DNA from: Candidatus Limnocylindrales bacterium
GTDB taxonomy: Bacteria; Chloroflexota; Limnocylindria; Limnocylindrales; CSP1-4
Reading direction: 5' to 3'
Assembly (NCBI GenBank): GCA_044449785.1
Contig: JBIOII010000001.1
Coordinates: 11,231 to 75,230 of the forward strand
Length of the DNA: 64,000 bases
Below are positions 41,944 through 44,532 of this stretch, in pieces. Position 1 is the first letter of the stretch. Each line of letters opens with the position of its first letter. Made by a program: the position numbers and the translations under genes. The notes beneath the pieces are model-generated. The model was given only the letters and a program-made list of their open reading frames with translations, had not been told where the DNA came from and did no database searches.

Positions 41944-44532
41944 GTGTCTCAGACATTCGAGACGCAATTCGCCGGTCGCACCCTGACCATCGAGACCGGC
42001 AAGCTCGCCATGCTGGCGGGTGGCTCAGTAACCGTTCGCTTCGGCGACACCATGGTCCTCGGAACCGCCAACCGGTCGGATCCGCGGCCCGGGCTCGACT
42101 TCTTCCCGCTCACCGTCGAGTTCGAAGAGCGCATGTACGCCGCCGGCAAGATCCCGGGCGGCTTCATCAAGCGTGAGTCGCGACCGTCCGAGCAGGCCAT
42201 CCTGTCGGCGCGTCTGACCGACCGACCGATCCGCCCCCTCTTCCCCGAGGGTTACAAGGACGACGTCCAGGTCGTTATCACGGTCCTCTCCACCGACCAG
42301 GAGAACCAGGCCGACGTTCTCGGCACCGTCGCCGCGTCAGCGGCGCTGACGATCAGCGAGATCCCATTCCAGGGCCCGATCGGGGCGGTACGCATCGGCC
42401 GCATCGACGGCGAGTTTGTCGTCAATCCGACCATCGCCGACCTCGAGCGCTCCGACATCGATCTCGTGGTCTCCGGTACCCGCGACGCCATCATGATGGT
42501 CGAGGCCGGCGCCTCGATCGTCCCCGAAGAGGTCATGGCCGAGGCGATCCTCTTCGCCCACCGTGCCCTCCAGCCGCTCATCGACCTACAGGAGAAGCTG
42601 CGCGAGGCAGTCGGCAAGCCGAAGAGCACCGTTTACCTCGAGCCCGGCACCGGTTCGGTGCTCGACTTCGTCAAGAAGGTCGGCGAGCCCGGTTGGGAGC
42701 TGGTCGTTCTGGATGTCGAGACGACGGGCCGCGACCCCAAGATGGCCGACCTCATCGAGATCGGCGCCGTGCGGGTGCGCGGCGGCCAGGTAGTAGACCG
42801 TTTCTCGACCTTCGTCAGCCCCGGCCGCGACATCTTCGGAACCCAGATGCACGGCATCACGACAGCCGACGTCGCCGGCGCCCCTCTCGCTCGGGAAGCG
42901 GCCGAGAAGCTGCTCGCGTTCGTCGGCGGCGCTCCCGTCGTGGGCCACAACGTCGGCTTCGACCTCGGGTTCCTGGATGAGGCTCTCGGCCAGCCCGGCA
43001 AACTCATCGAAGGCGGCTACTTCGATACCCTCGTCATCGCCCATGAGGCCTATCCGGACCTCGAGTCGTACAAGCTGGGCGACATCGCCCGCTTCTTCGG
43101 CATCAGCGTCGAGACGGCCCACCGCGGGCTGGCCGACGCCGAGACGACGGCCGCCATACTGGCGCAGTTCGCCGGCGATATCCCGAACCGAGTAGAGAAC
43201 CTCAAGGATGGCATCGCCATCTCCATTCGTGCCAACCGCAAGGAAGGCGAGAACTCTGCCGGCCTGCTCGACGCCGCTCGTCGACAGGCACGCGTCAGCA
43301 AGAGTCTCTTCGGGCTGGTGCAGAAGAAGACCGTTCGCCAGCTGGTCCTCGACGAGGGGATCCGCATGGACGGCCGCGGCATCGACGAGCTCCGGCAGAT
43401 CACGGTCGAGGTCGGCGTCCTGCCACGCGCCCACGGTTCCGGGCTATTCACCCGCGGCCAGACCCAGGCCCTCACCGTAGCGACGCTCGGCCCCGCCTCG
43501 GACGTGCAGCGGATCGACACGATCAGCCCCGAGACCGAGAAGCGGTATCTCCACCACTACAACATGCCCCCGTACAGCACCGGCGAGAACAAGCCGATGC
43601 GCGGCCCCGGCCGTCGCGAGATCGGCCACGGCCATCTCGCCGAACGCGCCCTGTTGCCGGTCCTGCCTTCTGAGGACGAGTTCCCGTACGTCATCAGGCT
43701 CGTCAGCGAGTGCGTGACGTCGAACGGCTCCACCTCGATGGCGTCGACCTGTGGCTCGAGCCTCGCTCTGATGGACGCCGGCGTGCCGATCAAGGCAGCC
43801 GTCGGCGGCGCGGCGATGGGCCTCATCAGCGAACCAGACGGCCGTTTCGTCGTCCTGACTGACATCCTCGGCAAGGAAGACGCCTTCGGCGACATGGACT
43901 TCAAGGTGACCGGCACCCGCGAGGGCGTCACGGCGCTACAGATGGACATCAAGGTCAAAGGCATAAACGAGGCGATCATCCGCCAGGGCCTCCAGAAGGC
44001 ACACGCGGCGCGGATCGCCATCCTCGACAAGATGGATGCGGTCATCCCGACGAGCCGCACCGAGATGAGCAGCTTCGCTCCGCGCATTATCACCATCAAG
44101 ATCAACCCCGAGAAGATCCGCGACATCATCGGCAAGGGCGGCTCCGTGATCCGCAAGATCCAGGAGGAGACCGGCACCGAGATCAACGTCGAGGACGACG
44201 GCACCGTCCAGATTGCCGCGGTGTCGGGCGATAGCTCGCGCAAGGCGGTGCAGTGGATCGAATCGCTCACCCGCGAGGTCGAGGTCGGCGGCCTGTACCT
44301 CGGCAAGGTCACCCGGATCATGGGCTTCGGCGCCTTCGTCGAGATCCTGCCGGGCAAGGAAGGCCTGGTCCGGATCGGCGAGCTGGCCGACTACCACGTT
44401 CCCACGGTTGAGGATGTGGTCTCGGTCGGCGACGAGGTCATGGTCGTGGTGGTCGAGATCGACCGCCAGGGCCGCATCAACCTTTCGCGCAAGGCCGCGA
44501 TGCAGCGCCACCTCGCTCGCGCCGAGTCGTAG
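41944..44532 (+). CDS. pnp: polyribonucleotide nucleotidyltransferase (PNPase) carrying an inserted DEDDh 3'-5' exonuclease domain (862 aa)
   Basis: RNase PH-1 domain, RNase PH-2 domain ([37 protein letters not shown]...FKVTGTREG), KH domain ([15 protein letters not shown]) and S1 domain ([15 protein letters not shown]). Between PH-1 and PH-2, at aa about 250-415, lies a DnaQ-like exonuclease domain with Exo I [9 protein letters not shown], Exo II [13 protein letters not shown] and Exo III [12 protein letters not shown] (H-x4-D, DEDDh). Confidence 0.95.
   Translation: [862 protein letters not shown]

Follow-up and report, generated by a model that had tools for sequence, protein, structure and literature searches.

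Polynucleotide phosphorylase (PNPase) is among the most conserved and best-studied enzymes of RNA decay, and to our knowledge its five-domain layout, in which two RNase PH-like domains (PH1 and PH2) are joined by an alpha-helical linker and followed by KH and S1 domains, is regarded as universal in bacteria and organelles. In the E. coli enzyme the helical domain is located on the side of the torus away from S1/KH and helps to build an extra pore that reaches the active site besides the central channel, and this side pore may control the traffic of nucleoside diphosphates (NDPs) and phosphate (PMC2723993). Phosphorolytic and hydrolytic activities are used together by the plant exosome (PMC5735172), and PNPase and RNase D are found together on RNase E in the degradosome of Caulobacter crescentus (PMC4245959). 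Here we report on the pnp gene of a Candidatus Limnocylindrales bacterium (Chloroflexota; class Limnocylindria), carried by a stretch of 64,000 nucleotides (nt) of contig JBIOII010000001.1 (positions 11,231 to 75,230; assembly GCA_044449785.1), which we refer to as the window. Its product is a PNPase whose helical linker is interrupted by a DnaQ-type DEDDh exonuclease domain. A sequence-only reading of the window had taken this to be an in-frame insertion rather than a gene fusion or an assembly artefact. This is borne out by the sequence, by the modelled fold and by broad sampling of related genes.

An exonuclease domain within the PNPase helical linker

The pnp gene occupies 41944..44532 on the plus strand, as do all of its features given below. 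It opens with a GTG codon shortly downstream of a Shine-Dalgarno-like GGGAGGA and encodes 862 amino acids (aa). In Pfam, RNase_PH followed by RNase_PH_C (aa 144-208) make up the N-terminal part of the product, and RNase_PH (aa 482-615), KH_1 (aa 716-773, E 8.4e-12) and S1 (aa 779-850, E 6.7e-17) complete the C-terminal half. Between them lies a match to RNase_T (PF00929) at aa 254-406, with an E value of 1.2e-28, a score of 101 bits (cutoff 24) and the profile covered from end to end (1-164 of 164); the PNPase helical-domain model is matched by its last third only (profile 54-80 at aa 452-478). The order PH1, helical linker, PH2, KH and S1 is kept, with the linker present but interrupted. Two PNPase equivalog models of NCBIfam, TIGR03591 (947 bits vs. 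a cutoff of 525) and NF008805 (943 vs. 471), are likewise each split into two stretches around the insert, the second TIGR03591 stretch (aa 443-851) corresponding to profile positions 280-688. Score, domain order, active-site residues and neighbourhood all point to a genuine member of the PNPase equivalog. Solved PNPases measure 705-784 aa, and their two-block alignment to the query leaves a net surplus of ~150-160 aa; the blocks break off at query 264 (chain position 280) and resume at 459 (316) for 5yjj, and do so at query 219 (233) and 402 (265) for 8zaw. The PH2 block is ~70% identical to solved PNPases. The Pfam order agrees with the sequence-only reading, which had placed an extra domain between PH1 and PH2 of an 862-aa product, and a profile search of the whole protein recovers a full DEDD domain there.

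Along the chain, PH1 spans aa 1-235 (41944..42648; Pfam RNase_PH and RNase_PH_C), with the GGFIKRE loop at aa 72-78. The opening helix of the helical linker domain (aa 237-246) and a short variable linker (aa 247-251) follow at 42649..42696, as placed by the AlphaFold2 (AF2) model and the 5yjj alignment, and lead into the inserted DEDDh (DnaQ-like) 3'-5' exonuclease domain at aa 252-408 (42697..43167). The interval originally flagged, 42690-43190, equals aa 250-416; the exonuclease peptides quoted for it are all located, at aa 253-262, 331-344 and 390-403, and the quoted flanking PNPase strings are present too. Exo I, II and III are there in the order claimed, as D257-V-E259 (42712..42720), the acid D340 in GHNVGFD (42961..42963) and H393-x4-D398, the DEDDh signature (43120..43137); the Exo I acids had been numbered D258 and E260, which is off by one. 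The rest of the helical domain occupies aa 409-480 (43168..43383; Pfam, 8zaw, AF2 and conservation) and includes a basic helix, AARRxARVSK, at aa 444-453. The second RNase PH-like domain, the phosphorolytic catalytic domain, extends over aa 481-700 (43384..44043) and holds the metal site D646-AFGDM-D652-F-K654 (43879..43905), and KH (44089..44262) and S1 (44278..44493) end the protein.

To place the insert within the linker we combined structure prediction with alignments to solved chains. The AF2 model of aa 221-480 is confident, with a predicted local distance difference test score (pLDDT) of 89.3 and a predicted template-modelling score (pTM) of 0.86. It contains a helix at model residues 17-26, i.e. 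aa 237-246, ahead of an alpha/beta exonuclease core that carries Exo I on its first strand and has the RNase H-like alpha/beta fold of DnaQ type. A long helix (aa 395-430) starts as the Exo III helix and continues unbroken into the linker, and further linker helices follow at aa 438-449 and 453-471. The linker helices of 8zaw, a cyanobacterial-type PNPase (chain 265-330), match query 402-470, and the first linker helix of the Staphylococcus epidermidis enzyme 5yjj weakly matches query 236-250. Given these AF2 elements and the two alignments, the DEDDh domain is therefore placed between helices 1 and 2 of the alpha-helical linker. With a helix predicted to be common to both and a high pTM, exonuclease and helical linker may form one rigid unit. 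The full-length AF2 model is poor (pLDDT 53, pTM 0.39) because the alignment of the C-terminal half is shallow and low in diversity, and it was used only for secondary structure over aa 236-471.

The insert does not stand out in composition or length. Its GC content at third codon positions (GC3) is 0.86, compared to 0.87-0.93 for the other parts of the gene, a search around the insert found no meaningful flanking repeats, and the segment measured from aa 236 to 445 is 207-211 aa long across species. Host-like GC3, absence of flanking repeats and near-constant length are the marks of an insertion that is therefore old and fully assimilated.

Occurrence, gene integrity and conservation

The pnp product is 100% identical to NCBI MFI5258036.1, annotated as polyribonucleotide nucleotidyltransferase [Candidatus Limnocylindrales bacterium] and encoded on a 91-kb contig. 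With the full-length protein as query, more than 120 further 90%-identity clusters with the same Pfam set, 860-864 aa in length and 87-92% identical, were retrieved from NCBI, JGI and ENA assemblies. In addition, 557 related loci came from a scan across GTDB with a single genome for each species. Of these, 80 were retained for inspection; they are 59-83% identical over the whole junction region, and every one of them has the insert. On the question raised at the outset, whether other PNPases carry the insert and in which lineages, these two sets show that they do, and nearly all retained loci are labelled Limnocylindria, Limnocylindrales or other Chloroflexota, with a few short contigs binned elsewhere. 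The freshwater type genus, represented by a Ca. Limnocylindrus sp., has the same architecture in an 864-aa protein of 69% identity with intact DEDDh motifs.

A split gene or pseudogene was suggested by a first database search with aa 201-480, which returned only proteins of <485 aa, many of them frameshifted with out-of-frame tails. This possibility is ruled out by the full-length query and by tblastn of the 80 loci, which show intact genes of 860-864 aa in most genomes. A single uninterrupted frame over residues 1-859 is present in ~57 loci; 10 are frameshifted at scattered positions, one has an in-frame stop, and the remainder are cut by contig ends. Nine of the 10 frameshifted loci come from 'MFD' isolate assemblies whose contigs are very long; we take these assemblies to be long-read.

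The gene neighbourhood is equally constant. The ribosomal protein S15 gene rpsO, the usual upstream partner of pnp, is an open reading frame (ORF) at 41559..41828 (+) in the window, 115 nt ahead of pnp, and tblastn finds it 5' of pnp on the same strand in all 70 related loci with enough upstream sequence. On the other side, asd lies 3' of pnp in 60 of 64 related loci, and a family-4 uracil-DNA glycosylase is found two genes 3' of pnp in 55. Further upstream, the window has ispG, proS, nusA, infB, rbfA, a DHH-family gene and truB-ribF. Intact genes across species and conserved rpsO/asd synteny therefore identify the insert-bearing gene as the standard housekeeping pnp of a lineage with class rank, Limnocylindria, and not as a chimera.

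Two observations concern how these genes appear in public data. Copies of pnp are often deposited in fragments of 200-480 aa (P0001, P0010, P0036 and others) named 'exonuclease domain-containing protein, partial', and such frameshift-fragmented entries conceal the architecture from searches with short queries; the loci concerned in our sample are L012, L040, L043, L046, L048, L049, L055, L056 and L062, and the frameshifts are almost restricted to MFD assemblies. Also, Limnocylindria-type pnp genes with 59-77% identity occur on contigs of 1.3-16 kb labelled as other phyla (L019 as Actinomycetota, L061/P0006 as Verrucomicrobiia, P0018 as Polarisedimenticolia and P0069 as Deferrimicrobiaceae), and these labels probably result from misbinning and not from true presence beyond Chloroflexota.

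Residue conservation was scored over the 57 species with intact pnp. The DEDDh residues D257, E259, D340 and H393 are present in all 57 and D398 in 56; D340 is also invariant in two further alignments. The metal ligands of the phosphorolytic site, D646, D652 and K654, are likewise found in 57/57 species and have the spacing of E. coli D486/D492/K494, whose role in the PNPase metal site is documented (PMC2723993). The GGFIKRE loop is invariant in the same 57 species, as are RR-IGHG and the phosphate-binding Ser/Thr motif NGSTSM. With these residues intact, PNPase activity is probably retained, and the DEDDh site, also intact, is apparently active. As a measure of selection we used the ratio of non-synonymous to synonymous substitution rates (dN/dS; median Nei-Gojobori by region), whose absolute values should be taken as rough, given the high GC content and the codon bias of this genome. 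It is 0.20 for PH1, 0.20 for PH2 and 0.18 for KH-S1, 0.36 for the exonuclease and 0.45 for the remaining helical domain, and reaches 0.72 in the N-terminal linker, which at 54% identity is the least constrained part. This ranking across regions shows an exonuclease domain under apparent purifying selection rather than a decaying passenger. A degenerate exonuclease domain is ruled out by catalytic-residue conservation and dN/dS.

Directly after the insert, the linker helix carries the strongly conserved basic stretch AARRxARVSK (43273-43302). The block has a conservation of 0.89, with A445 invariant and R447 and R450 each conserved to at least 90%, and the 8zaw sequence is unrelated at this position. 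The stretch could form a nucleic-acid path towards the exonuclease.

Kinship, possible function and genomic context

By score, full-length profile, motif order and fold the insert belongs to the DEDDh superfamily (PF00929). Its best NCBIfam matches are PRK07883 'DEDD exonuclease domain-containing protein' models, DinG, PolC and dnaQ-family models, and none of its exonuclease matches there reaches an equivalog cutoff. Sequence matches in the PDB are the Thermotoga maritima PolC exonuclease 2p1j (5e-24), PolC 9qpc and S. aureus DinG 8zef, together with a DnaQ domain, Cas2-DEDDh and E. coli epsilon, and the top Foldseek match is DinG. Among 1.8 billion representative proteins the nearest relatives outside PNPase are DinG-type helicases (44-48% identity), with DEDD+BRCT and DEDD+GIY-YIG/UVR proteins also near. 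Based on the NCBIfam, PDB and representative-protein matches, the likely donor is therefore a DnaQ/PolC/DinG-type module, from a clade that is mostly DNA-associated. A characterised member, the exonuclease of B. subtilis DinG, prefers single-stranded DNA (ssDNA), degrades the RNA of RNA:DNA hybrids and cleaves single-stranded RNA (ssRNA) only with Mn2+ (PMC12525004).

Assignment of the insert to Pol III epsilon, DinG, RNase T or oligoribonuclease fails. The Pol III epsilon models give 77.7 vs. 222.7 bits (TIGR01406) and 69 vs. 196 bits (PRK05711), and the domain is embedded in a PNPase without the C-terminal epsilon tail; the JGI name 'DNA polymerase III epsilon subunit family exonuclease' is best read as a family-level label only. 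For DinG, NF005981 scores 125 bits vs. 789 with only its exonuclease part matched, and Pfam detects no helicase domain in the pnp product. An RNase T- or oligoribonuclease (Orn)-type identity was considered and is unsupported: no such chain appears in the PDB at E<=1e-5 or among the 25 NCBIfam matches listed, and structural similarity to these enzymes is below that to PolC or epsilon. Of the likenesses drawn in the sequence-only reading, DEDDh and Pol III epsilon stand and RNase T and oligoribonuclease do not, the nearest relatives being the PolC exonuclease, epsilon, the DinG exonuclease, ExoX and Cas2-DEDDh.

What might such an enzyme do? The architecture part of the explanation is near certain. 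Beyond it, we favour, with a probability of roughly 60%, a single-chain 3'-5' exonuclease that works by phosphorolysis as well as by hydrolysis. An ancient in-frame insertion would have put a DnaQ-type DEDDh domain between linker helices 1 and 2 of what is presumably the single housekeeping PNPase, in the canonical nusA-infB-rbfA-truB-rpsO-pnp neighbourhood. Judging by the place of the helical domain in the E. coli enzyme, a trimer would bear three DEDDh sites on the face opposite the KH/S1 RNA entry, beside the side pore. The PH2 site would yield NDPs by phosphorolysis, and the DEDDh site nucleoside monophosphates (NMPs) by metal-dependent hydrolysis that would be phosphate-independent and irreversible. 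The hydrolytic site would most likely act on 3' ends of ssRNA, be it on short pieces that leave the ring or on ends that the ring cannot finish; PNPase leaves a short oligonucleotide product (PMC11572968).

The choice of RNA as substrate is the weakest step, and several points weigh against the explanation as a whole. By sequence and structure all closest relatives of the insert (PolC, epsilon, DinG, ExoX and Cas2-DEDDh) are DNA exonucleases, and the one characterised in B. subtilis favours ssDNA, as described above. Since RNase J, RNase III and a DHH/NrnA-like protein are already encoded in the window, there is no obvious gap in RNA decay for the domain to fill. Activity and substrate are, moreover, predictions. 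While we consider RNA the likelier substrate, ssDNA or RNA:DNA hybrids are a serious rival.

A more elaborate version of the favoured single-chain, dual-activity enzyme is tentative and rather doubtful. The Limnocylindria PNPase would then be an exosome-like two-mode machine with RNA hand-over and phosphate/NDP-dependent switching, a covalent, independently arisen bacterial counterpart of Exo9-Rrp44/Rrp6. RNA taken up by KH/S1 and fed through the PH ring, or short limit fragments that the ring leaves, would be passed across the distal face or the side pore to the DEDDh site on the helical domain, and phosphate and NDP levels would switch the enzyme between reversible phosphorolysis and irreversible hydrolysis.

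Among the alternatives to a dual RNA exonuclease, the one that survives best, unlikely as we hold it to be, is that the insert acts on ssDNA ends or RNA:DNA hybrids and serves a secondary role of PNPase in DNA repair and recombination or R-loop removal instead of bulk RNA decay. In its favour, the nearest relatives of the insert in NCBIfam, the PDB and the representative proteins are all DNA enzymes, the B. subtilis DinG exonuclease degrades both ssDNA and the RNA of hybrids (PMC12525004), and the PNPases of B. subtilis and E. coli have been implicated in DNA repair and 3'-5' degradation of ssDNA (PMC2709576, PMC3241651, PMC5379764); the uracil-DNA glycosylase gene two genes downstream in 55 loci is a weak further point. 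If DNA or hybrids are indeed its substrate, the domain would provide hard-wired evidence for the debated part of PNPase in DNA repair, and the strongest so far.

It is improbable, in our view, that the DEDDh domain trims or edits 3' tails made by PNPase from NDPs, as a built-in counterweight to, or quality control of, synthesis by the enzyme. In favour of this, the donor clade is made up of proofreaders associated with polymerases (PolC exonuclease and epsilon), PNPase is a reversible polymerase (PMC3241651) and the helical domain flanks the pore by which NDPs and phosphate may enter (PMC2723993). However, a template-independent PNPase offers nothing to proofread against, and the position of a growing 3' end near the helical-domain face is unsupported; the idea is purely speculative.

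We regard as very improbable a catalytically silent module with a structural, regulatory or docking role, for example as a side-pore gate or as a binder of nucleotides or partners. E. coli PNPase has a dynamic helical domain that influences its activity (PMC2723993), and some inserted domains are kept as scaffolds, but pseudo-enzymes normally lose catalytic residues, and here five are kept in 56-57 of 57 species spanning ~69-92% overall identity, with the whole domain under purifying selection. The chance that an assembly chimera, a recent mobile, intein-like or otherwise horizontal insertion, or a mis-called ORF lies behind the architecture is negligible: the frameshifted fragments of <485 aa from the first search spoke for it, and it is ruled out by conservation across species (>120 independent clusters of 860-864 aa, ~57 species with an uninterrupted frame), frameshifts that are scattered and in nine of 10 cases confined to MFD assemblies, host-like GC3, absence of flanking repeats and conserved synteny.

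Other genes of the window bear on RNA metabolism to varying degrees. RNase III (6610-7542, +) and RNase HII (21194-22033, +) are confirmed. RNase J (46686-48353, +) scores 693 bits vs. the 820 cutoff of the RNase J1 model and lies above the cutoff of the RNase J family model TIGR00649. The RNase J and RNase III calls of the earlier reading stand, but its 'NrnA' is a DHH-family protein between rbfA and truB (38511-39545, +) that matches the NrnA equivalog weakly, at 72 bits vs. a cutoff of 350, and the name is probably a family-level guess. Its position presumably resembles the mycobacterial rbfA-cnpB arrangement. A single ORF of 621 aa follows (39548-41413, +), with TruB at aa 8-293 and the FAD-synthetase half of RibF at aa ~351-557; the riboflavin-kinase half of RibF was not detected in this ORF, which is either a truB-ribF(N) fusion or contains an internal ribF start. 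The truB-ribF arrangement has same-strand tblastn matches in 58 related loci. In the rpsO-pnp leader (41826-41950) the predicted fold is no better than that of shuffled sequences (z -0.96), and it therefore gives no sign of an E. coli-like RNase III autoregulatory hairpin. Across the whole 64 kb no Rfam family reached its gathering score. Finally, the window is a dense housekeeping block that also includes smc, ffh, rimM, trmD, rplS, tsf, pyrH, ispG, proS, nusA, infB, ftsK and cinA, and three further ORFs (12503-13120, -; 19243-20655, +; 14722-16563, +) comprise two coding-like ORFs without a Pfam match and one DUF3352 protein.

Comparison with known systems

The Limnocylindria enzyme shares with canonical PNPases (E. 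coli, S. antibioticus, Caulobacter and Staphylococcus; 3gcm, 1e3p, 4aim and 5yjj) the order PH1-linker-PH2-KH-S1, the D/D/K metal site, the phosphate-binding motif and the rpsO-pnp locus, and differs from them in the DEDDh domain of ~150-160 aa, which is absent from all solved PNPases (705-784 aa). It is a class-wide exception to the five-domain layout in an abundant soil and freshwater lineage, in which a second, chemically different 3'-5' exonuclease centre has long been retained in a linker domain of poorly understood role. The searched full-text literature, including a 2026 Limnocylindria genomics paper, holds no description of a PNPase-DEDD fusion. The epithet 'previously undescribed' in the sequence-only reading is justified for that literature but not for the databases, where the architecture is present thousands of times; the novelty is that of something undescribed in the literature searched, with the sequences public and automatically annotated. 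Database names are inconsistent (PNPase, 'Pol III epsilon family exonuclease' and 'exonuclease domain-containing protein, partial'), and on the practical side current pipelines continue to name these pnp products inconsistently.

The closest relatives of the insert itself occur in other settings. The PolC exonuclease domain (2p1j, 9qpc) is hosted by a templated polymerase, whereas here the host is a phosphorolytic RNase ring without a proofreading context. In Firmicutes DinG (8zef, 9ii8), an N-terminal DEDDh domain is joined to an XPD-like helicase; DinG-type proteins are 44-48% identical to the insert, but theirs is a terminal fusion to a DNA helicase and ours an internal insertion in an RNase. 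The biology of DinG is that of replication stress and R-loops. Its clade is able to cut RNA in hybrids and, with Mn2+, ssRNA (PMC12525004). The DEDDh RNases proper rank lower: for the insert, RNase T and oligoribonuclease come below PolC, epsilon, DinG and ExoX. Both of these RNases function as homodimers.

We know of no earlier single polypeptide that combines phosphorolytic and hydrolytic exonuclease activities, and if active on RNA the Limnocylindria PNPase would be the first, as well as a bacterial parallel to the exosome and a natural probe of the helical domain and side pore. The Caulobacter degradosome also joins PNPase with a DEDD-family hydrolytic exonuclease, but there the association is scaffold-mediated and RNase D is a DEDDy enzyme with HRDC domains and no covalent link to PNPase. 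In the RNA exosome, a PH-like ring (Exo9) is likewise paired with hydrolytic 3'-5' exonucleases, the DEDD enzyme Rrp6 and Rrp44. Rrp44 occupies the exit of the channel, across the ring from the S1/KH cap; in PNPase this is the side on which the helical domain, and by inference the insert, is located. The exosome nucleases are separate, non-covalent subunits of other families (RNase D-like DEDDy for Rrp6 and RNB for Rrp44), whereas the Limnocylindria enzyme is one polypeptide with a DEDDh domain and a ring whose phosphorolytic site is intact, making the resemblance one of analogy and not of homology of association.

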